Counted from the stretch's first letter, positions 1-10,134 are shown. The stretch: 64,000 nt of DNA from Escherichia coli (GCF_024700885.2 NZ_CP117016.1); one strand, 5' to 3'. The notes: generated from the sequence alone by a model not told the origin. Made by a program: numbers and translations.

Positions 1-214
1 CTTCGTGCAGTTCCATCTCTCCGGTGGCGAGCATCACAGCAAAATCTGGCGTATAGAACGTGTTGTCAGCTAACCGCAGCTTGATACCCTCGAATCGATA
101 CCAGGCGATTTCCCCTGCACGTTTACGCTGCTCAAGGTGCTGGCAATACGCAGATTCTGTTTTGTTCATCTGGCCTGTTTTGAGTCGACCAAGAGCCTGC
201 ATCTGTTTTCTCAT
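1..214 (-). CDS. Phage protein, 5' part only (runs off window); DUF1064-like PD-(D/E)XK-type fold suspected
   Basis: Reverse-strand ORF starting ATG at 212-214 with GAGGT SD 7 nt upstream; translation MRKQMQALGRLKTGQMNKTESAYCQHLEQRKRAGEIAWYRFEGIKLRLADNTFYTPDF...; sits directly downstream of P-like gene in same orientation. Confidence 0.45.
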   Translation of the reverse strand, partial: MRKQMQALGRLKTGQMNKTESAYCQHLEQRKRAGEIAWYRFEGIKLRLADNTFYTPDFAVMLATGEMELHE

Positions 215-279
215 GATTTACCTCTGAGGTAATTAAAAACCACATAAGACACGAAATCAATAGAGTTTAGAATATTTTA

Positions 280-294
280 TTACCTGATGGGTAA
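280..294. promoter_or_regulatory. Operator-like palindrome TTACCTGATGGGTAA
   Basis: Perfect TTACC-N5-GGTAA dyad in intergenic space between P-like gene and downstream ORF; same motif recurs in the immunity region. Confidence 0.35.
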
Positions 295-331
295 TTATTT
301 GAGCGTAAAAAAATGCGCTATCGCGCTGGTA

Positions 332-1132
332 TTACTTGATAAATCCTGCCGCCTTTCCCCGCCTGTATTCCTCCATCAGCCACTGCGCCGGTGTTATTCC
401 CCCAAGGGTGGCGGCGTTAGGCATGCATCCGAAACTTCGCCCTGGTGGATGGTAAACGTCTCTCCCTGTGTCCGGAGGTGTACTCATGGGCTCTGGCTTT
501 GCCTGTATGCTGATCACCGGATCGGGTATCTGCTGTCCGGAAGCCACCTTTTTCGCCCAATCATCGAGCAGCCTGCGCGCGTGTTTCTCAACCTCAATCT
601 CGCTAAGCTGGCGCTGATACATTGCACGGCGGGTATCACATACGACCCAGTACATAACCGGATGTCGCCACGGGAATCTTTCGGGACCACCAGGATATAA
701 ACTTTTTTCCTTGCTGTACCGGTGAAACTCCGCCATCACATCGTCAATGGTGACGCCAAGAACCATCTTGCTGTCTTTACACCACTTGATGAATTGCCCA
801 GGCGACGGCCAGAACGGAGATTCACTGGCGCGGGCGTGGCGCATACCAGCAGAAACCTGTTCACGGGTTCGGATCCCCCCTTCGGCAAACGCAGCAATCC
901 ACTGCTGTTTTGCAGCTACTTCCTGCCCTGGCGTCTTCAGGTTGGTTACCACTGCCGCCGGAAACAGTTGTTTCAGCTGTTTGAAAAGGGCATCAACAAG
1001 CCTCTCTGCTGACATGTTAACCACATTGTCATTGTTGACGTACTGATGCTCATAACCTGACATGCGAGAAAGGGCTTCTCCGTCACGGTTTTGTATCGCG
1101 GTAAAAACGTTGTTCACAAGAAATCCTCCCAT
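332..1132 (-). CDS. Lambda P-like replication protein (helicase loader)
   Basis: 266 aa ORF; segment PFWPSPGQFIKWCKD and FPAAV region parallel lambda P (PFLPSPGQFVAWCRE) as remembered; overlaps 3' end of O-like gene by 19 nt. Confidence 0.8.
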   Translation of the reverse strand: MGGFLVNNVFTAIQNRDGEALSRMSGYEHQYVNNDNVVNMSAERLVDALFKQLKQLFPAAVVTNLKTPGQEVAAKQQWIAAFAEGGIRTREQVSAGMRHARASESPFWPSPGQFIKWCKDSKMVLGVTIDDVMAEFHRYSKEKSLYPGGPERFPWRHPVMYWVVCDTRRAMYQRQLSEIEVEKHARRLLDDWAKKVASGQQIPDPVISIQAKPEPMSTPPDTGRDVYHPPGRSFGCMPNAATLGGITPAQWLMEEYRRGKAAGFIK

Positions 1133-1929
1133 GCTTCAGGGCTGTTCCAGTGCGGAACGTTGTTATCAGGTAATGTTGATTGCTTCTGTCTGCTAATCTG
1201 CAGCCGCCTTGCCAGCTTCTGCTCCCACTGTGCCTGATGGTATGCCTTACCCTCAGCCATCCAGTAAATTCTGAACTCTGCAAGTTCCTGTGCCGTTGGC
1301 AGACTGTCCAGGTAGATCCCCTGCAATGAGCTTTTCCGAAGAAAGTCATCTGATGGCTGCCATTGTTCATGCATGACAAATTTTCCTAATTGCCCTGGTC
1401 CACCAGGAGGAACAAAGTTATTCATCACGGCGTTGTTTGCTCCGGGGTCATGAGGCACAGAATCCCCGCTTTTTGTCCTGCTCTCCCTCTCTTGGTTAAA
1501 TGACTGGTTATATGACTGGTTCTGGATCCCGTTTTTGGGATCATTCAACATCCCGTTTTTGGGATCATTCAACATCCCGTTTTTGGGTATATTCCCGTTT
1601 TCGGGAACATTACCGTTTTCGGGTTCATTACGTCCTTCTAGGTTGCCTTTAATGTTCCCTTTTTTGGTTATATTAAGAGAGAAAACCCGCACTCTTTTCG
1701 TCGCTCCCTTTCTCTCTCCGGTATCTGAAATAAGCCCCATTTTCATGAGCGATATAAGCCCGGCCTGCACGGTTTTTTTATTCAGGCAAGTGTCTTTAAC
1801 GAGGCGTTCTATGCTGGGGTAGCAGAGGTTATATTCATCGGCTCTGTCAGCCATCGAGAGCAGTATGAGCTTTAATGACGAGCTACCTGGATCTGTCTCC
1901 CAGGCCCAATCTGTTGCATGTCTGCTCAT
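1114..1929 (-). CDS. Lambda O-like replication initiator with internal iterons
   Basis: 271 aa ORF with GGAGA SD; N-terminal HTH-like region; central repetitive linker (NGNVPENGNIPKNGMLNDPKNGMLNDPKNG) encoded by tandem DNA repeats; immediately upstream of P-like gene. Confidence 0.7.
   Translation of the reverse strand: MSRHATDWAWETDPGSSSLKLILLSMADRADEYNLCYPSIERLVKDTCLNKKTVQAGLISLMKMGLISDTGERKGATKRVRVFSLNITKKGNIKGNLEGRNEPENGNVPENGNIPKNGMLNDPKNGMLNDPKNGIQNQSYNQSFNQERESRTKSGDSVPHDPGANNAVMNNFVPPGGPGQLGKFVMHEQWQPSDDFLRKSSLQGIYLDSLPTAQELAEFRIYWMAEGKAYHQAQWEQKLARRLQISRQKQSTLPDNNVPHWNSPEAWEDFL
1526..1630. repeat. Iteron array (putative phage replication origin) inside O-like gene
   Basis: Two exact 24-bp tandem units ATCCCGTTTTTGGGATCATTCAAC (1526-1549, 1550-1573) followed by three degenerate units; core dyad CCCGTTTT(T/C)GGG occurs 5 times at 24/24/18/18 bp spacing; TGACTGGTT x2 at 1501-1522. 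Confidence 0.6.
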
Positions 1930-1944
1930 GATTAATCTCCGCTA

Positions 1945-2145
1945 TCAGCTTGAATGTTGTGGGGAGGAATTAATCATGATCTGCTTAATCTCAGCCCTGA
2001 TGCGACGGTTTGATTCCATGGTGCACTCAACACAGTGTCCGTTGTAAACCCAGCGTTCACTGTCATGTCCGTGCTTACATGGTTTTCCGGTGTAGTAGCG
2101 TTTAAGTCCGCGCTTTGCGGCATCAATACGTGTAATGATTTCCAT
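1945..2145 (-). CDS. Small zinc-ribbon-like phage protein (occupies cII position); start uncertain (ORF open to 2214)
   Basis: ORF with CxxH...CxxC pattern (YTGKPCKHGH...GHCVEC); located between Cro-like gene and O-like gene. Confidence 0.4.
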   Translation of the reverse strand: MEIITRIDAAKRGLKRYYTGKPCKHGHDSERWVYNGHCVECTMESNRRIRAEIKQIMINSSPQHSS

Positions 2146-2249
2146 GGTAAGCCCTGTTATTAGTATTGGGATTACGGTCATTTTGTGCTGACACAAAAAA
2201 AAGATCAACCACATTTGGTTTTTTATTACCCTTAAGGTGCGAATAGATA

Positions 2250-2274
2250 TGAAAAGACCGCCGGATGGCGGTCT
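2250..2274 (-). terminator. Intrinsic terminator downstream of Cro-like gene (tR1-like position)
   Basis: Reverse strand hairpin AGACCGCC-atcc-GGCGGTCT followed by TTTTC. Confidence 0.5.
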
Positions 2275-2295
2275 ACAGAGGGTTGTGGCTGGATA

Positions 2296-2526
2296 TCATG
2301 AGTAGAAGAAGTATGCCAATTCTGCTTTTGAGCGCAGCCATTGTCTTGTTTTACAGGCTTTAAAAAGCCCATTCATCAATACCTTACCTGGCATTTTGCG
2401 CTTACCTGTTAAGTGAGTCTGGATATAGTGACTCGTCGTTCCGGCTTCCTGTGCGAAGGCTTCACGCTCATCCGGAGTAAGTGCAAGCCAGTGCTTTTTG
2501 AAATCGAAATGTCCGTTATCGCTCAT
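2296..2526 (-). CDS. Cro/DicC-like small DNA-binding protein (putative)
   Basis: 76 aa ORF divergent from repressor gene across operator-containing intergenic region; weak SD. Confidence 0.5.
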   Translation of the reverse strand: MSDNGHFDFKKHWLALTPDEREAFAQEAGTTSHYIQTHLTGKRKMPGKVLMNGLFKACKTRQWLRSKAELAYFFYS

Positions 2527-2562
2527 AGCTATTGCCTGATATTTATTTCAGATAATAAATAT

Positions 2563-2625
2563 TCACCCATAAGGTAACAAAAATCAAGGATAGTTACCCA
2601 TGAGGTGCATTTACCTGTTGGGTAA
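2563..2625. promoter_or_regulatory. OR-like operator cluster (three TTACC-N5-GGTAA-type dyads) in divergent repressor/cro intergenic region
   Basis: TCACCCATAAGGTAA (2563-2577), TTACCCATGAGGTGC (2594-2608), TTACCTGTTGGGTAA (2611-2625). Confidence 0.55.
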
Positions 2626-2680
2626 TATTGCTTTAAATTGAATCATCTTCTGATTCATATATGAGGCGATTTTCCAGAAA

Positions 2681-3265
2681 ATGAAAAGTATCCAAGACGT
2701 CCGCAGGCAAAATCTCAACGACTTGATCGACCGTGAATTCAATGGTGTTCAGACGCGGATGGCTGAAAAACTTGGAACTCAGGCAAATCTGGTAAACCGC
2801 TGGGCTCTTGGCAAGAAGGTTATCGGCGACCAGGTTGCGCGAAAAATTGAAGCTGCCGCCAATAAACCACGTAACTGGCTTGATATCGATCGCTCGCTTT
2901 CTCAGGAGGGTTTTCAGCCTGTCGGACCAAGCGACATTGGTCAGCTGGCGGCTCACAACCTGGAACGCTGGATGAGCGAAAGCCGCGACCTTTCAACACA
3001 GGGAAAACTTCACCGCGCATCCGGCGTCGCCCAAGTGACAATCAGCCGCCTGTTAAACAATGAGGTCAGCGTTTCCATTTCCACCCTGGAGAATGTTGCA
3101 TCTGCATTCGGACGTCACGGATATGAACTACTGATTCACCCGCACGACCCTGCAACTATCAACTATGACCGCTCGCGCTACGCATTGTTACCTGAAACCG
3201 AGAAAGCAAAGATCGAAAGTTACATTGAATTTGTCATCAACCAGAACGAAAAAAACAAACAATAA
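2681..3265 (+). CDS. Prophage repressor-like protein with two HTH (XRE-type) domains; no S24 peptidase domain evident
   Basis: 194 aa ORF; two segments with HTH-like pattern (MAEKLGTQANLVNRWALGKK... and ASGVAQVTISRLLNNEVSVSISTLENVASAFG); divergent from Cro-like gene; followed by terminator. Confidence 0.6.
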   Translation: MKSIQDVRRQNLNDLIDREFNGVQTRMAEKLGTQANLVNRWALGKKVIGDQVARKIEAAANKPRNWLDIDRSLSQEGFQPVGPSDIGQLAAHNLERWMSESRDLSTQGKLHRASGVAQVTISRLLNNEVSVSISTLENVASAFGRHGYELLIHPHDPATINYDRSRYALLPETEKAKIESYIEFVINQNEKNKQ

Positions 3266-3285
3266 AATCATATTTTTCAGTAAGT

Positions 3286-3312
3286 AAGCCGCCAAATGGC
3301 GGCTTTTTTATT
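3286..3312 (+). terminator. Intrinsic terminator after repressor gene
   Basis: AAGCCGCC-aaat-GGCGGCTTTTTTATT. Confidence 0.6.
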
Positions 3313-3313
3313 G

Positions 3314-3390
3314 TCTATTTAATTACCTTGCAGGTAATTTTTTCAACTCATACCTATTGACATCAAACCAAATACGCATAATCATTACCT
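3314..3390 (+). promoter_or_regulatory. OL-like operator pair flanking candidate early promoter
   Basis: Perfect dyads TTACCTTGCAGGTAA (3314-3328) and TTACCTCAACGGTAA (3376-3390) bracket TTGACA (3348-3353) and a CATAAT-like -10; directly upstream of rightward early operon. Confidence 0.5.
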
Positions 3391-3418
3391 CAACGGTAAC
3401 AAGCTGAGGTAACAAGTT

Positions 3419-3571
3419 ATGCAGTGGAAAATCATCAACGGTTGGTACTGCGTTACTGCATGCGGATTCATGAGCTGGAAGTTCCGCACCTTACAGGAAG
3501 GCATTAAGTGGGCTTTCGTCAGCAAAGAAGCTCGCGATGTGGCCAACGATAACGAGATATGGGAGGGCTGA
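3419..3571 (+). CDS. Small hypothetical protein (50 aa), first ORF of early rightward operon
   Basis: ATG preceded by GAGGTAA SD; MQWKIINGWYCVTACGFMSWKFRTLQEGIKWAFVSKEARDVANDNEIWEG; not in ORF track (below length cut-off). Confidence 0.35.
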   Translation: MQWKIINGWYCVTACGFMSWKFRTLQEGIKWAFVSKEARDVANDNEIWEG

Positions 3572-3573
3572 TA

Positions 3574-3873
3574 ATGAACGTTAATCAGCAGCAAAATCTT
3601 CAAAAAATCATGCTGGCATTCGACAAGGACTACCGCCTGTCAGAACAGCTATATGACCGACAAGTTGAACTGATCGAAAGCATCCGGCTTCATCAACTAG
3701 CCTCAACTTTCGACGCTGTAACAGGTAAAGGCGTTCGCCAGGAAGTACTGGAGGCCGCTAAAGACAGTCCAGAGTTCGAAGAACTGATGGATTCCTACCG
3801 GCGCGAGGCAATGGCAATTATCGCCCGCTGGGATCTGGCTGATCAGCTTGATGGGCAGAGGGACGCGGCATGA
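3574..3873 (+). CDS. Hypothetical phage protein (99 aa)
   Basis: ATG at 3574 with GGAGGG SD 8 nt upstream (track start 3559 lacks SD); stop overlaps next gene start (ATGA). Confidence 0.55.
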   Translation: MNVNQQQNLQKIMLAFDKDYRLSEQLYDRQVELIESIRLHQLASTFDAVTGKGVRQEVLEAAKDSPEFEELMDSYRREAMAIIARWDLADQLDGQRDAA

Positions 3874-4691
3874 AGCCGGGAATTTATTTCGACATCAGCA
3901 ACGAAGACTACCACGCCGGGGACGGCGTGAGTAAGTCGCAACTGGACATGGTTGCCAAGAATCCGGCGCTTCTTAAATGGGTTCAGGCAGCACCAGAAGA
4001 CGAAGAGAAAAAGTCTGCACTGGATATGGGAACCGCATTGCACTGTCTGCTTCTGGAGCCTGGAGAATTCAACAAACGCTTCATTGTTTCACCGAAATTC
4101 GATCGTCGGACGAAACAAGGTAAAGCTGACGAAGAAGCATTTCTTCGTGATGTAGCGGATATGGGGATTACGGTACTTGATGCCGAGCAGTGGCGGAAAC
4201 TGGAGCTGATGCGTGATAGCGCAATGGCTCACCCGGCGGCACGCTGGATGCTGGAAGCACCTGGTTACTGCGAAGCATCAATGTACTGGAATGATGAAGA
4301 GACTGGTGAGTTGTGCCGCATTCGTCCAGACAAATGGCTGAACGAGCACAACGTGATCGTCGACGTGAAAAAGGTTGCAGATATGGACCGTTTTGCACGC
4401 CACATCGAGGAATTCCGCTACCACGTGCAGGACGCAATGTACCGCGAAGGAGCGATGAGGGTTACTGGTCAGTCGCATGGTTTTTTCTTTCTTGCCGTGA
4501 GCGAAAGCATTGATTGTGGTCGGTATCCGGTACGCGTGTTCGAGCTGGATGCGCCGGATGTCGATGCCGGGCACGCTCTGTTCCGCCGGGATCTGAATAC
4601 CTATCACGAATGCCGCATCAATGATGAATGGGGCGGCGTGGAAATTATTAAACGCCCTGACTGGGCACGTAAACAGGATATGTACGTATGA
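3870..4691 (+). CDS. PD-(D/E)XK-family phage exonuclease-like protein
   Basis: 273 aa; D...IVDVKK-type nuclease motif; translationally coupled to flanking genes. Confidence 0.6.
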   Translation: MKPGIYFDISNEDYHAGDGVSKSQLDMVAKNPALLKWVQAAPEDEEKKSALDMGTALHCLLLEPGEFNKRFIVSPKFDRRTKQGKADEEAFLRDVADMGITVLDAEQWRKLELMRDSAMAHPAARWMLEAPGYCEASMYWNDEETGELCRIRPDKWLNEHNVIVDVKKVADMDRFARHIEEFRYHVQDAMYREGAMRVTGQSHGFFFLAVSESIDCGRYPVRVFELDAPDVDAGHALFRRDLNTYHECRINDEWGGVEIIKRPDWARKQDMYV

Positions 4692-5569
4692 GCAATGATA
4701 TCGCAATCACATCACAACCAGGCGCAACTGTAGGTACTGCTGCGGCAATCTTCAGCCCGGAGGGCATGAATCAACTGGTGCGTTTCGCGGAGTTGATGTC
4801 ACAAAGCAAAGCGACTGTACCGAAACATCTTGAAGGCAAACCTGCCGATTGTCTGGCGGTGACCATGCAGGCGGCACAGTGGGGAATGAACCCTTTCGCC
4901 GTGGCGCAGAAAACGCATGTGGTAAACGGAACGTTAGGCTACGAAGCACAGTTGGTAAACGCGGTCGTATCCTCTTCCAGCCTGCTAGCGACACGCCTGA
5001 ATTATCGCTGGAGCGGTGACTGGTCGAATGTTAACGGCAAAACAGATAAATCACCGAATCTGACGGTAACTGTGTCAGCAGTTCTTAAAGGAGAAGCAGA
5101 ACCCCGTGAGCTTACCATCAGTATGGCGCAAGCCGGAGTGCGTAACTCTCCATTGTGGGAACAGGATCCGCGCCAGCAGCTTGCCTATCTTTGCACGAAA
5201 CGATGGGCTCGCCTGCACGCTCCTGATGTACTTCTCGGTGTTTACACCCCTGACGAATTACAGGAAACGGCACCGCGCGTTGAGCGAGACATTACTCCGC
5301 AAACGACTACTGCTGCGGGAATGAACAGTCTGATCAACGCTAAACCAGTGAAAAAGCCTGATGAGCAAACGCGTAAAGCGGATAGCCGTGATCCAGAAGA
5401 AATGCTGATGGCCTTTACCAGCGCAGCGATGAATTACAGCACTGTCTCCGAACTGGATAAGGCTTACAAATACATTGCACAAAAACTTTCAGATGATGAC
5501 GAACTGCTGGCAAAAGCCACCGACGTTTACAGCGTTCGTCGGGAAGAATTAAACGAAACATCTATGTAA
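4688..5569 (+). CDS. Putative single-strand annealing recombination protein (RecT/Bet-like); family assignment tentative
   Basis: 293 aa ORF start-stop overlapping the exonuclease gene (ATGA), the typical exo/SSAP arrangement. Confidence 0.4.
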   Translation: MSNDIAITSQPGATVGTAAAIFSPEGMNQLVRFAELMSQSKATVPKHLEGKPADCLAVTMQAAQWGMNPFAVAQKTHVVNGTLGYEAQLVNAVVSSSSLLATRLNYRWSGDWSNVNGKTDKSPNLTVTVSAVLKGEAEPRELTISMAQAGVRNSPLWEQDPRQQLAYLCTKRWARLHAPDVLLGVYTPDELQETAPRVERDITPQTTTAAGMNSLINAKPVKKPDEQTRKADSRDPEEMLMAFTSAAMNYSTVSELDKAYKYIAQKLSDDDELLAKATDVYSVRREELNETSM

Positions 5570-5618
5570 CCACCACCGCGGCGCCACGCGCGCCGCACTG
5601 CAACCAAGAGAGGTATTT

Positions 5619-5867
5619 ATGAAAGGTGCATTAGGTAAGAAGGAACTCCTGGCGGTGGTGCCACTGTCATGGAGCACTATCGACCGTATGGAGCGCGCAG
5701 GGGAATTTCCTAAACGCTGGTATATCACCGATAAACGCTGCGCATGGAACCGTGATGAAGTTGAGCGTTGGCTTGATGAACGTCAGGCAGCAAGCCCGGC
5801 AGAGTTCCAGGGTAAAAAACCTCCTGTTCAGCAACGTGTATATCGTCCTGTGAGCAACGCGGCATGA
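5619..5867 (+). CDS. AlpA-family phage transcriptional regulator / excisionase-like protein
   Basis: 82 aa; pattern LSWSTIDRMERAGEFPKRWYI...WNRDEVERWL typical of AlpA-type HTH; AGAGAGG SD. Confidence 0.7.
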   Translation: MKGALGKKELLAVVPLSWSTIDRMERAGEFPKRWYITDKRCAWNRDEVERWLDERQAASPAEFQGKKPPVQQRVYRPVSNAA

Positions 5868-5976
5868 GTGTGCTGCTAAGGCACTGGAGCAAATGGTCAG
5901 GATGGTACTTATTCCTGGCCTCTGTTTCAGCATGGCTTTATCTGCTGGCATTAATTTTCAGAGAGGGTTGGATTAA

Positions 5977-6276
5977 GTGAGAAAGTTAAGCCGACTTGAA
6001 AAATATCACATGAACAAGGTTTCAATGCGCAGCCCTTCAAAGGTTGTTGCCGTTACTCCTGCGGCGATAGAGATCGAAAAACGCGCGATTGAAAGAGAGA
6101 AAAAAGGGCAGTTCCGCATTGCCGCCCACCTTTGGCTTCAGTGTATGGATGTTGCTTCTGGTGATGTTGAACGTGCAAGGATCGCGGTTCGCAGGGACCA
6201 ATGTATCACAAAAGGTAACGGCCTTCGCCGTGGCGACTATAGCGGCATAGGATGTTGTGGGGTGGTTTATGACTAA
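5977..6276 (+). CDS. PerC-like small regulator (putative); GTG start
   Basis: 99 aa; RIAAHLWLQCMDV...DVERARIAVRRDQCI resembles PerC-family pattern; GAGGGT SD before GTG 5977. Confidence 0.4.
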   Translation: MRKLSRLEKYHMNKVSMRSPSKVVAVTPAAIEIEKRAIEREKKGQFRIAAHLWLQCMDVASGDVERARIAVRRDQCITKGNGLRRGDYSGIGCCGVVYD

Positions 6277-6919
6277 GAAATACACACTAATCTATGCAGA
6301 TCCACCCTGGGCATACCGGGACAAAGCCACAGATGGTAATCGCGGTGCCGGTTTTAAATATCCGGTTATGAGTGTGCTGGATATCTGCCGCCTTCCTGTG
6401 TGGGATTTGGCCGGTGAAAACTGTCTGTTGGCCATGTGGTGGGTGCCAACACAACCACTCGAAGCACTAAAAGTTGTTGAAGCCTGGGGATTCCGTCTGA
6501 TGACCATGAAGGGCTTCACGTGGATAAAATGTGGTAGTCGACAACCAGATAAACTGGTTATGGGGATGGGACACATGACTCGCGCCAACAGTGAAGATTG
6601 CCTGTTTGCGGTAAAGGGAAAACTACCTCCGCGCATTAATGCAGGTATCGTTCAGTCATTTACCGCACCGCGGCTTGAGCATTCAAGAAAACCAGATGTC
6701 GTTCGTGAAAAACTTGTGCAATTGTTAGGCGATGTTTCTCGCATTGAACTGTTCGCCCGCCAGTCGTCTCATGGCTTCGATGTTTGGGGTAATCAGTGCG
6801 AAGACCCGGCAGTGCAACTACACCCAGGATACGCGTTGGATATTGCCGGATTAACAAATGCATTCAGCAATGCTCCGCTGTCACCAACAGACAACCAGGG
6901 GCGGGAGCGTGCAGCATGA
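6269..6919 (+). CDS. MT-A70 family DNA N6-adenine methyltransferase
   Basis: DPPW catalytic motif (LIYADPPWAY); ATG 6269 preferred over GTG 6257; stop overlaps next ORF. Confidence 0.75.
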   Translation: MTKKYTLIYADPPWAYRDKATDGNRGAGFKYPVMSVLDICRLPVWDLAGENCLLAMWWVPTQPLEALKVVEAWGFRLMTMKGFTWIKCGSRQPDKLVMGMGHMTRANSEDCLFAVKGKLPPRINAGIVQSFTAPRLEHSRKPDVVREKLVQLLGDVSRIELFARQSSHGFDVWGNQCEDPAVQLHPGYALDIAGLTNAFSNAPLSPTDNQGRERAA

Positions 6920-7110
6920 ACAGGGCATCACCAGCAGATTTAAGGAAATGCCTTGAAACTGCAAACATGCTTGCACACAGCGGGATCAGGTTTGTTCCAA
7001 TTCCCGCTGTCACTGATGCTGAATTTGCAACACTGTCAGCAATATTCACAGATAAAATTGAATCACTGGCAGCAGAAGCCGAGATGGAAGAAAATCAGCA
7101 GAACTATTAA
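6916..7110 (+). CDS. Small hypothetical phage protein (64 aa)
   Basis: ATG overlapping MTase stop (ATGA); MNRASPADLRKCLETANMLAHSGIRFVPIP...; convergent with integrase. Confidence 0.4.
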   Translation: MNRASPADLRKCLETANMLAHSGIRFVPIPAVTDAEFATLSAIFTDKIESLAAEAEMEENQQNY

Positions 7111-7113
7111 ACG

Positions 7114-8364
7114 TTATTCCCCCGCCATCCACTTCTCAAACTTCGACGGGGAGAACGGAATCAGATCCGTATGCTCCCCGTTAATCCAGGAATCAATCAT
7201 ATCGGCCCACTGCTGCAACATGTAGGCGCGCTGTCTGGCGTATTCCGCTTTGTTATATACGGCGCGCACACCTTTCTGCTCATGTGCCAGAGCCTTTTCA
7301 ATCCAGTCTGAAGGATAACCAGCCTCATGCAACAACGTACTGGCTGTACGGCGCATATCGTGTACGGTGAAGTCCTGAATATGCTCACCATCTTCATTTA
7401 TTATTTTCACCGTTCTGTCGATCAGAGAGTTCAGCGCGGCATTAGATAATGGCTTCCGGAAATTGTAACGACCAGGAACCAGATATTCACTTCCACCAGC
7501 GCACATCTGCAACCCGACCAATATATCCTGAACCTGTTTAGGCAGGTAAATAACATGCGCCCGGCTTCCCTTCATGCGGTCTGAAGGAATTGTCCATGTC
7601 CATTTTTTAAAATCTATTTCATCCCACGTTGCATTGGTGAATTCGCCCTTACGAACCATAGTGATAAGCACCAGTTTTAAAGCCATTTTCATAGTGCCCA
7701 TAGCACCAATGGCATCCAACGTGCGGAAGAACAGGCCAATTTCTTCTGGTGTCAGTGTTCGCTCTCGTGGTTTAAATATGGCGATAGACGAAGGTTTAAT
7801 GTCAGCCGCAGGATTAAACAAACCATGACCACGGTCATTGGCGTGACGGTATACGCTGCTGATGATCTCCCTGGCCTGTACTGCTGTTGCCCGACCACCG
7901 CGTTCGACAATCCGGTCACACAAATCACGAACCATCGATGTGGTAATTTCAGCCATCATTTTGTTGCCAAGAACCGGAAGTATGTCACGGTCGATCACCG
8001 CCTGCTTCATTGCGCGGGTACTGTCAGCCAGGATGACGTGTTTCATATAACTGTCGGTATGTACCGCAAACGTCTCGGCACCACGAATTTTTTTGATACC
8101 GTCACGTTTAGCCGCAGCCGGCGACTGGCCTGCTTTAAGCAGCTTCTTTGCAGCAATCAGTTCTTCTCGCGCTTCTGCCAGGCTGATACCGTCACGCCCA
8201 TACTGCCCGATTACCAGTGTTTCGCGGCGACCGTTGATACGGTAGTCATAGCGAAACGAGACCGTGCCTGACGTAAGCACAGCTACATACAGCCCGTCAC
8301 GATCGGAGACCTTGTACAGTTTGTCCTGCGGCTTGAGGTTTTTTAATTTTGTATCGGTAAGCAC
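7114..8364 (-). CDS. int: Tyrosine site-specific integrase (P4-type)
   Basis: 416 aa; N-terminal MLTDTKLKNLKP typical of P4-like integrases; R..H..R..Y catalytic region near C-terminus (HDMRRTASTLL, AHEQKGVRAVYNKAEY). Confidence 0.9.
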   Translation of the reverse strand: MLTDTKLKNLKPQDKLYKVSDRDGLYVAVLTSGTVSFRYDYRINGRRETLVIGQYGRDGISLAEAREELIAAKKLLKAGQSPAAAKRDGIKKIRGAETFAVHTDSYMKHVILADSTRAMKQAVIDRDILPVLGNKMMAEITTSMVRDLCDRIVERGGRATAVQAREIISSVYRHANDRGHGLFNPAADIKPSSIAIFKPRERTLTPEEIGLFFRTLDAIGAMGTMKMALKLVLITMVRKGEFTNATWDEIDFKKWTWTIPSDRMKGSRAHVIYLPKQVQDILVGLQMCAGGSEYLVPGRYNFRKPLSNAALNSLIDRTVKIINEDGEHIQDFTVHDMRRTASTLLHEAGYPSDWIEKALAHEQKGVRAVYNKAEYARQRAYMLQQWADMIDSWINGEHTDLIPFSPSKFEKWMAGE

Positions 8365-8392
8365 AATTCACCCGTATAGAAACCATTTTCAT

Positions 8393-8428
8393 GACGGTAT
8401 GAGAGTATACCTTTAAGGTAATACCGTC
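8393..8428. promoter_or_regulatory. Nested palindrome upstream of integrase start (candidate int operator or att-arm site)
   Basis: GACGGTAT...ATACCGTC outer inverted repeat enclosing TACCTTTAAGGTA, a near-copy of the TTACC-N5-GGTAA motif. Confidence 0.35.
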
Positions 8429-8480
8429 ACCTGTACCGCCGAAAAATATGGTGTAGAGTGAATAGAAATGAATACATAAA

Positions 8481-8510
8481 AACAAAAACCCCCTGCAAAA
8501 ACAGAGGGTT
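8481..8510 (-). terminator. Intrinsic terminator downstream of guaA
   Basis: Reverse strand CCCUCUG-UUUUU-CAGGGGG hairpin followed by UUUUUGUU. Confidence 0.55.
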
Positions 8511-8556
8511 GAGTTGGCATCTGAATAGGAATGATTTGCTATGAGTTAGCTGTTAA

Positions 8557-10134
8557 TCATTCCCACTCAATGGTAGCTGGCGGCTTGCCGCTGATGTCAT
8601 ACACCACGCGGGAAATACCGTTCACTTCATTGATAATGCGGTTGGAAACGCGACCGAGGAAATCGTACGGCAGATGCGCCCAGTGTGCGGTCATAAAGTC
8701 GATGGTTTCGACAGCACGCAGAGAAACAACCCAGTCATACTTACGACCATCGCCCATTACACCAACGGAACGTACCGGCAGGAAGACGGTGAACGCCTGG
8801 CTGACTTTGTCGTACAGGTCCGCTTTACGCAGTTCTTCAATAAAGATGGCGTCAGCACGGCGCAGCAGGTCGCAGTACTCTTTCTTCACTTCGCCCAGTA
8901 CACGAACGCCGAGGCCTGGTCCCGGGAACGGGTGACGGTACAGCATGTCGTACGGCAGGCCCAGCTCCAGACCAATCTTACGCACTTCGTCTTTGAACAG
9001 CTCTTTCAGCGGTTCAACCAGCCCCATCTTCATCTCTTTCGGCAGGCCGCCCACGTTGTGGTGAGATTTGATGACGTGTGCTTTACCGGTTGCAGACGCC
9101 GCAGATTCGATAACGTCAGGGTAGATAGTACCCTGCGCCAGCCACTTCACGTCTTCCAGTTTCAGCGCTTCTTCATCGAATACTTCAACGAAAACGCGCC
9201 CGATGATTTTACGTTTTGCTTCCGGATCGTTTTCGCCGGCCAACGCTGACAGGAAGCGATCTTCTGCCGGAACGTGAACAATGTTCAGACCAAAGTGATC
9301 GCCAAACATATCCAGAACCTGCTCTGCTTCGTTGAGACGCAGCAGGCCGTTGTCGACGAATACGCAAGTCAGGTTTTTACCGATAGCGCGGTGCAGCAGC
9401 ATTGCGGTTACGGAGGAATCCACACCACCAGAGAGGCCGAGGATGACTTTATCGTCGCCTACCTGCTCGCGGATGCGAGCTACAGCATCGTCGATAATTT
9501 TCGCTGGCGTCCACAGGGCTTCACACTGGCAGATATCTCGCACAAAGCGCTCCAGCATGCGCATACCCTGGCGGGTGTGAGTCACTTCCGGGTGGAACTG
9601 TACGCCATAGAAGCGTTTTTCTTCGTTAGCCATAATGGCAAACGGGCAGCTTTCGGTGCTGGCTACGGTGACGAAGTCGGACGGGATAGCGGTAACTTTA
9701 TCGCCGTGGCTCATCCAGACATCGAGCAGAGGTTTACCGTCTGCGGTCAGAGCATCTTCAATACCGCGAACCAGTGCGCTGTCGTTTACGACTTCAACCT
9801 GCGCGTAGCCAAATTCACGTTCGTTAGAGGCTTCAACGTGACCGCCCAACTGCATTGCCATGGTCTGCATGCCATAGCAAACGCCGAATACCGGTACGCC
9901 TGCTTCAAAAACATACTGCGGCGCACGCGGGCTGTTTTCTTCGGTGGTGCTTTCCGGGCCGCCGGAAAGAATAATGCCGCTTGGGTTGAAGTCACGAATT
10001 TGTGCTTCTGTCACATCCCACGCCCACAGTTCGCAGTAAACGCCCAGCTCACGCACGCGGCGCGCAACCAGTTGAGTATACTGGGAACCGAAGTCCAGAA
10101 TGAGGATGCGATGCTTATGAATGTTTTCCGTCAT
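8557..10134 (-). CDS. guaA: GMP synthase (glutamine-hydrolysing)
   Basis: 525 aa; C-terminus ...PPATIEWE; GATase and ATP-PPase motifs (SGGVDSS). Confidence 0.97.

Follow-up and report, generated by a model that had tools for sequence, protein, structure and literature searches.

Genes at the locus

The analyzed window, a 64-kb stretch of Escherichia coli DNA, includes the GMP synthase gene guaA on the minus strand (8557-10134, 525 amino acids), with its TGA stop codon at 8557-8559. The gene was taken from the ORF list, and its product is RefSeq WP_000138282.1 in the lysogen as well as in a strain with an empty site; the insertion of the neighboring element leaves guaA intact. Beyond the guaA stop codon lies a gene on the minus strand for a tyrosine integrase of 416 amino acids with a GTG start codon (7114-8364; PHROG family phrog_1), in which the Pfam domains Arm-DNA-bind_3 (8.4e-20), Phage_int_M (1.6e-11) and Phage_integrase (3.2e-19) are recognized. 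The distance from the integrase start to the guaA stop, given as 193 bp in a preliminary description of this DNA, measures 192 nt. [quoted passage not shown]

The earlier label of a P4-type integrase holds in the broad sense, given the Arm-DNA-bind_3 and Phage_integrase domains and 27.9% identity to the P4 protein (the identity to the integrase of phage vB_EcoP_ZX5 is 99.5%). It does not extend to the narrow sense of a cluster that integrates at tRNA 3' ends: ARAGORN detected no tRNA or tmRNA gene in the 64-kb window, as the preliminary description had noted of tRNA genes, and the target is guaA. A tRNA gene as the integration target was ruled out by the same ARAGORN result. The epsilon15 cluster of integrases, within the IntSXT subgroup, is likewise kept apart from the P4 cluster in the literature (PMC8138268). 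On the plus strand at 5619-5867, an AlpA-type small helix-turn-helix protein is a candidate excisionase (directionality factor), matching phrog_66 ("excisionase and transcriptional regulator", E = 2e-16); its homolog in phiV10 is annotated as Phage_AlpA, and it may be the counterpart of the AlpA/Vis-type excisionase of P4.

The attachment core

The attachment core was defined as the segment common to an empty site, both ends of the prophage, and attP of the free phages phiV10 and epsilon15. Its integrase-proximal copy is the 17-bp sequence AATCATTCCCACTCAAT (8555-8571), which lies 190 nt from the integrase start and overlaps the guaA stop codon, encoding the last four residues of GuaA (I-E-W-E) and the TGA stop (translation ...ATIEWE*). 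The same 17 bp are common to the window, the empty site of strain EC21Z-097 (L002) and both free-phage attP sites, and when reverse-complemented they are identical to attgagtgggaatgatt, the attP/attB core published for phiV10, epsilon15 and vB_EcoP_ZX5. In EC21Z-097, the gap between yfgI and guaA is 94 bp long, and only AATCATTCCCACTCAAT and the guaA side are shared with the window. Across prophage-free E. coli genomes, the match to the window ends at 8555/8556, mostly starting at query base 1556, which corresponds to window position 8555.

The distal copy of the core was located in E. coli MLI114, a strain with 0 mismatches to window positions 1-8954 over the 8,954 bases compared. There, AATCACTCCCACTCAAT (L001 39958-39974) forms a direct repeat with one mismatch, 39,024 bp from the guaA-side copy, a position that corresponds to approximately 30.5 kb upstream of window position 1. 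Each end of the prophage thus carries the core, the two copies forming a direct repeat, against one copy at the empty site.

These comparisons bear out the proposal of the preliminary description that a prophage junction lies at the guaA 3' end and that this end may be the attachment site. The alignment with prophage-free guaA-downstream DNA that it recommended places the junction and core at 8555-8571, a junction elsewhere was looked for in the empty-site comparison and not found, and the matching distal repeat exists in MLI114; a check for lysogens without the second core copy likewise gave none. The description was also right that the direct repeat cannot be defined from the window, since the second copy lies beyond the left edge.

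The site agrees with published work. For vB_EcoP_ZX5, a 2022 paper reported the core attgagtgggaatgatt, which in attP lies 190 bp 5' of the integrase gene and in attB is found at the guaA 3' end, and verified it by amplifying attB, attL and attR by PCR and sequencing them by the Sanger method; the same sequence is stated there to be the demonstrated attP of phiV10 and epsilon15 (PMC9782041). Phage TL-2011b has been located in guaA (PMC3293862), and the epsilon15 integrase cluster is described as targeting guaA (PMC8138268). The phage attP brings in a 17-bp copy of the guaA end, AATCATTCCCACTCAAT, and recombination with the identical attB keeps guaA whole while duplicating the core at both ends of the prophage.

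Identity, extent and distribution of the prophage

The region 8365-8571 is almost certainly the integrase-proximal attachment junction of an intact prophage of the phiV10/epsilon15 type (Uetakevirus). Positions 1-8554 are the integrase and early-gene end of a phiV10-like prophage of 39,024 bp, with the remaining ~30.5 kb and the second att copy to the left of the window edge. In MLI114, according to its annotation, guaA and yfgI flank a complete podovirus-type prophage with genes for replication, recombination, terminase, portal, capsid, core, tail-fiber, acyltransferase, lysis and early functions, and the Uetakevirus structural gene set is present in it, both by annotation and by a 24-kb query. 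At the DNA level, the integrase region and the att arm share 98-99% identity with phiV10, vB_EcoP_ZX5, TL-2011b, phiv142-3 and the O157 typing phages 9 and 10, and approximately 81% with epsilon15, SPN1S and Tyrion. The structural genes, compared by the 24-kb query from the MLI114 prophage, are 97.7% identical to those of phiV10, phiv142-3 and others, over 81-85% of the query length.

Only 8.5 kb of the element are visible in the window, and other islands, too, are inserted at the guaA hot spot, which would suit a decayed remnant or a non-phage genomic island whose repeats are functionless relics. Such an origin is nevertheless very improbable. In the identical strain MLI114, the prophage is present at its full length of 39,024 bp, having both att copies as well as genes for terminase, portal, capsid, tail, lysis and early functions, so the remnant lacking a second copy that the preliminary description had considered is not what is found; moreover, the structural genes are 97.7% identical to those of plaque-forming phages, integration and spontaneous induction are documented for phage ZX5, which is nearly identical (PMC9782041), and the att-arm motifs are kept across genera. 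CPZ-55 and other cryptic prophages of K-12 were ruled out as well, the neighbors being guaA and yfgI and the element being phiV10-like.

Integration at this site is common. With a 2-kb query (window 7000-9000), guaA was matched in 5,425 of 5,426 complete E. coli genomes, and the integrase was also covered in 562 of the 5,426 (~10%). An uninterrupted yfgI-guaA region with a single core copy was found in 4463 of the 5426 genomes, and approximately 18% of complete E. coli genomes have some insertion at guaA. A scan of IMG/VR with the integrase returned 80 loci at 98-100% identity, most of which begin exactly at the integrase gene and therefore add no new diversity of the att arm; these loci were left unused. 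Junctions of the same type adjacent to guaA occur in Citrobacter, Klebsiella, Pseudocitrobacter and Superficieibacter. In a prophage of Pseudocitrobacter faecalis (contig QNRL01000004.1), the guaA-side core reads CACTCGAT.

Side of strand exchange

The two core copies of the lysogen differ at one base. The guaA-side copy has T at 8560, derived from the phage, where the host lineage originally had C, changing the last sense codon of guaA synonymously from GAG to GAA; the distal copy has C at the equivalent position. The presumed ancestral attB, a 317-bp sequence rebuilt by joining the distal host flank to the C-bearing core and this in turn to the guaA side, is 100% identical to the empty sites of at least 19 genomes. 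A 45-mer across the yfgI-side junction with C has full or nearly full matches in five lysogens, and also matches the 19 empty sites as far as the core extends; the 45-mer across the guaA-side junction with C was found in 0 of 5426 genomes. With T8560 coming from the phage and C being the host sequence, the polymorphism places strand exchange, as far as crossover can be read from the junction sequences, to the right of base 8560. The side of the crossover, given by the natural T/C variation of attB, goes slightly beyond the published papers examined, as do the host-like terminator and the inverted copy of the core described below.

Within that interval, symmetry suggests a 7-bp overlap, CCCACTC (8562-8568), with GTTAATCATT and AATTATTTAC on its two sides in attP as putative core-type half-sites in imperfect inverted orientation. 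These half-sites were chosen by eye, and are identical in inverted orientation at 8 of 10 positions in phiV10 and 9 of 10 in epsilon15. Exchange inside this putative overlap, between inverted half-sites, fits the polymorphism result.

Arm-type repeats and a candidate integrase promoter

Upstream of the integrase gene is a palindrome with perfect 9-bp arms, TGACGGTAT (8392-8400) and ATACCGTCA (8421-8429), separated by a 20-nt spacer that holds an inner palindrome, ACCTT-T-AAGGT (8409-8419). It corresponds, to within one or two bases, to the nested palindrome previously placed at 8393-8428. When 8365-8563 was shuffled 2000 times with dinucleotide composition preserved, only 1.45% of the shuffled sequences had even a single inverted repeat whose arms measure 9 bp and whose loop is at most 40 nt; the real sequence has two, the second being the repeat across the guaA stop codon described below, and both are kept in relatives at only ~80% DNA identity.

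The palindrome (8391-8430) can be written as two inverted copies of an arm-type repeat, ATACCGTCAC, of which the minus-strand copy (8391-8400) agrees at 9 of 10 bases and the plus-strand copy (8421-8430) at 10 of 10. There is also a degenerate third copy, GTACCGCCG, at 8433-8441, and two further exact copies of ATACCGTCAC lie on the plus strand in the 5' part of the integrase coding sequence (8096-8105 and 8186-8195). With one mismatch allowed, ATACCGTCAC has 12 matches in the window versus 2.6 expected, and all five exact or near-exact clustered copies are in 7843-8430. Another exact copy is found in the far att arm (L001 39877-39886). By sequence pattern, arm-type repeats distinct from the core are thus present on both sides of it. 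The GenBank record of epsilon15 labels the same 10-mer, including the equivalents inside the integrase gene, as integrase binding sites.

Conservation was assessed in an alignment of 12 sequences, comprising six phages or prophages and six genomic sequences of Citrobacter, Klebsiella, Pseudocitrobacter and Superficieibacter retrieved by a pattern scan, all six of which adjoin guaA. The right arm of the palindrome is invariant in the 12 sequences, which partly reflects the search pattern; the left arm has substitutions in Tyrion, Superficieibacter and Pseudocitrobacter that are not compensated in the right arm. As RNA, the palindrome folds in an ordinary way (z = -1.5, with 15 of 200 shuffled sequences folding equally well). 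The uncompensated left-arm changes and the ordinary fold favor protein sites over a hairpin, and most likely the palindrome at 8392-8429 represents paired arm-type sites for binding of the integrase.

The epsilon15 record labels the equivalent 39-nt palindrome "RNaseIII, mRNA processing", and the sequence is able to fold, as would befit an RNA hairpin in the integrase mRNA leader, processed by RNase III, instead of DNA bound by the integrase. This is improbable on account of the substitutions and folding statistics just given; furthermore, a hairpin leaves unexplained why the arm 10-mer also occurs unpaired inside the integrase gene and in the other att arm, and, if the candidate promoter described next is real, most of the palindrome is upstream of the transcript start.

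That candidate integrase promoter was read by eye on the minus strand at 8404-8430, inside the palindrome, with a -35 hexamer GTGACG (8430-8425), a 15-nt spacer and a -10 hexamer TATACT (8409-8404), the latter being TATAAT in epsilon15 and TATATT in Superficieibacter. A sigma-70 promoter scan of 8000-8800 that required a spacer of 16-18 nt found none. With arm-type sites on both sides of the core and the palindromic pair overlapping this weak candidate promoter, integrase bound at the palindrome would take part in building the intasome there while also repressing its own gene, and the overlap leads us to infer autoregulation of the integrase gene.

Terminator and inverted copy of the core

Between guaA and the integrase gene, downstream of the former and upstream of the latter, the terminator scan identified an intrinsic terminator on the minus strand (8487-8510), consisting of AACCCTCTGTTTTTGCAGGGGGTT followed by TTTGTTTTTA and supplied by the phage. 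It is annotated in the phiV10 and epsilon15 records, and is kept in all 12 aligned sequences. Its stem and flanks resemble the native terminator between yfgI and guaA, with a local alignment score of 21 versus 9.7 ± 1.7 for shuffled sequences, and a hand count on the aligned sequences gives 25 of 27 bases identical between the phiV10 and native terminators. The phage thus supplies the end of the gene together with a look-alike of its terminator.

The second inverted repeat spans the guaA stop codon. Its arms, GGAATGATT (8528-8536) and AATCATTCC (8555-8563), pair over 9 perfect bases, one more than the 8-bp repeat first noted at 8528-8563, and extend to 15 nt at 87% complementarity (8522-8536 with 8555-8569). 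The right arm is the att core itself, and the left arm, TGAATAGGAATGATT (8522-8536, in the integrase-side arm), is an inverted near-copy of the core that matches its reverse complement at 13 of 15 positions. The repeat thus appears to be the core paired with a conserved inverted near-copy in the phage arm. Two blocks of the near-copy, TGAATAG and TGATT, are kept in 12 of 12 sequences from six genera; the center varies. A second copy of TGAATAG(A/G)AATGA on the plus strand (8459-8471), 63 bp from the one at 8522, lies within a 12-mer, TAGAGTGAATAG, that is the same in 11 of the 12 sequences, and is possibly a binding site for an accessory protein.

As RNA, 8470-8600 folds into a 15-bp stem followed by the terminator (z = -5.7), with the two mismatches of the near-copy forming G.U pairs in the minus-strand (sense) transcript. 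The native guaA 3' region has the terminator only, without a hairpin spanning the stop codon, and an Rfam scan of 8000-9000 at E ≤ 1 returned no family. In several lineages of the 12-sequence alignment, transversions in the center of the near-copy break the pairing, indicating that full-length pairing is not strictly maintained. Since the core arm is fixed by guaA coding and by the match to attB, covariation is limited to counts of wobbles versus mismatches.

The near-copy may instead act as DNA, being an extra core-type site for the integrase or a site for an accessory protein that would build or orient the intasome, with the RNA hairpin incidental. This is a plausible though tentative interpretation, favored by the match of the minus strand of 8522-8536, GCAAATCATTCC, to the proposed core-type half-sites GT(T/A)AATCATT and GTAAATAATT, by the two conserved blocks around a variable center, such as two short protein contacts would leave, by the recurrence of TGAATAG 63 bp away at 8459, and by a mirror-image partial copy, ATTGAGTG, in the far arm at 21 bp from the core. 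The 18-20 bp spacing from the core, however, misfits the canonical C-O-C' arrangement, and at positions 4, 6 and 8, where the near-copy departs from the core, every change is from G to A and preserves G.U pairing in RNA of the sense strand. IHF sites are not claimed, as a consensus scan of the reconstructed attP gave only two sites with one mismatch each, ACTCAATTATTTA, which overlies the core, and ACTCAATTGGTTA, which belongs to the far arm, and both are too weak.

Together with the phage terminator, the repeat across the stop codon would end guaA transcripts, or late transcripts of the phage, before the integrase gene. That 8522-8536 and the terminator constitute a selected RNA device, in a phage arm that may derive from a captured host terminator downstream of guaA, is unlikely. 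If true, the guaA mRNA of the lysogen would end differently at its 3' side, in a 15-bp hairpin that takes in the stop codon, and its stability or translation termination could change, or the device could insulate the integrase gene from upstream transcription in an RNase III-dependent manner, like sib of lambda.

Comparison with other integration systems

The closest systems are those of phiV10, vB_EcoP_ZX5, TL-2011b and phiv142-3 (Uetakevirus), which are found at guaA with the same core at the same position, ~190 bp upstream of the integrase gene. The phages of this group have the same genome size and structural genes as the present prophage, and the terminator is at the same place in phiV10, but the tail-fiber/acyltransferase end and parts of the early region differ, which limits coverage of the structural query to 81-85%, and the distal core copy of this lysogen differs in its host-derived C.

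The attP of epsilon15, as given in its GenBank record (AY150271) and in later papers citing its description, has the same layout, running from the integrase gene through the arm-repeat palindrome, terminator, inverted core copy, core and far arm with ATACCGTCAC to Rz. Its record contains the same core, annotates the ATACCGTCAC repeats as integrase sites, and also annotates the palindrome, the terminator and IHF sites. In contrast to the present prophage, epsilon15 has Salmonella as its host and TATAAT rather than TATACT as its -10-like hexamer, at a DNA identity of ~81%.

The heterobivalent integrases of the lambda and P4 types are similar in their N-terminal arm-binding and catalytic domains, and their systems also share the short repeats clustered to either side of the core, what may be an imperfect inverted repeat about a center of ~7 bp, and a phage copy of the 3' end of the target that restores the gene. 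Unlike in those systems, the target here is the end of a protein-coding gene rather than a tRNA gene, and the binding sites are putative ones, read from sequence pattern.

Other elements that target guaA include CMGI-3 and its relatives (PMC8138268). The ET245 island is inserted at the guaA 3' end with an integrase 53% identical to that of the prophage and the same core, TAAATCATTCCCACTCAAT; the EC42405 island, also a guaA 3'-end insertion, rewrites more of the end of the gene (TAG stop, CTACTCCCACTCAATAGTCGC). The CMGI-3, ET245 and EC42405 elements carry different cargo and are not Uetakevirus.

Significance

This system is already published, consisting of a known phage group at a known attachment site, and only modest refinements are added here, namely the side on which crossover occurs, a terminator resembling that of the host, and the inverted copy of the core. 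The junction delimits a common E. coli prophage on one side, with guaA confirmed as attB, and has little significance beyond annotation, where its use is in drawing prophage boundaries and in recognizing guaA as an integration hot spot.

Early genes and integrase

The early-left genes of the prophage (2681-7110, plus strand) comprise those for a repressor-like helix-turn-helix (HTH) protein, a pair consisting of RecT and a PD-(D/E)XK nuclease, an AlpA-like protein, PerC, an MT-A70 methylase and a DUF1382 protein. Because these genes run towards the integrase gene int (7114-8364, minus strand), leaving 3 bp between their end and the int stop codon, int transcription is convergent with them and starts from the attachment (att) arm. 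Within the coding sequence of int, the 10-mer ATACCGTCAC occurs three times without mismatch (7843-7852, 8096-8105 and 8186-8195). The two nearest the int start (8096-8105 and 8186-8195) correspond to Int sites annotated in epsilon15; the copy at 7843, located 520 bp into int on the opposite strand, carries no annotation there.

Attachment arms

The int-side arm includes a direct repeat, TGAATAG(A/G)AATGA, with copies 63 bp apart (8459-8471 and 8522-8534), which may be a site for an accessory protein. The 12-mer TAGAGTGAATAG, which holds the 8459 copy, is unchanged in 11 of the 12 aligned sequences, which represent six genera, the exception being that of Superficieibacter. The far arm (L001 39915-39957) lies outside the window and was examined in E. 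coli MLI114 (L001). There ATTGAGTG, found 21 bp from the core, repeats the right half of the att core in inverted orientation and overlaps an IHF-like site with one mismatch; its conservation is only partial in epsilon15 and SPN1S. This arrangement mirrors the inverted copy of the left half of the core in the int-side arm.

The prophage also possesses a tRNA-Arg gene outside the window (L001 15859-15935, between the terminase and portal genes), which has no relation to the attachment site. A megablast search with the structural region (L001 12983-37000) matched 64 Synechococcus phage records, presumably through one short conserved stretch such as this tRNA gene.

Occupancy of the guaA site and the adjoining terminator

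The yfgI-guaA region is uninterrupted in only 4463 of the 5426 complete E. coli genomes searched. Other elements also take the guaA site: strain ET245 has an element (L006 9-1520) with the same core as the window and an integrase of 396 amino acids (53% identical to that of the window), strain EC25 (L007) has a Klebsiella-like prophage (int 80% identical to that of the window), and strain EC42405 has an island (L005 1-1520) that has rewritten the end of guaA, with TAG as its stop codon (CTACTCCCACTCAATAGTCGC).

At the empty site of strain EC21Z-097 (L002), the native terminator between yfgI and guaA (L002 4945-4977) is nearly identical to the one that the phage places between guaA and int (8487-8510). 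Alignment of the window terminator with that of the host gave a score of 21 (9.7 ± 1.7 for shuffled sequences), and the phiV10 terminator matches the native one at 25 of 27 bases, counted by hand on the aligned sequences. This likeness suggests either an ancient capture of the host DNA adjoining attB or convergence.
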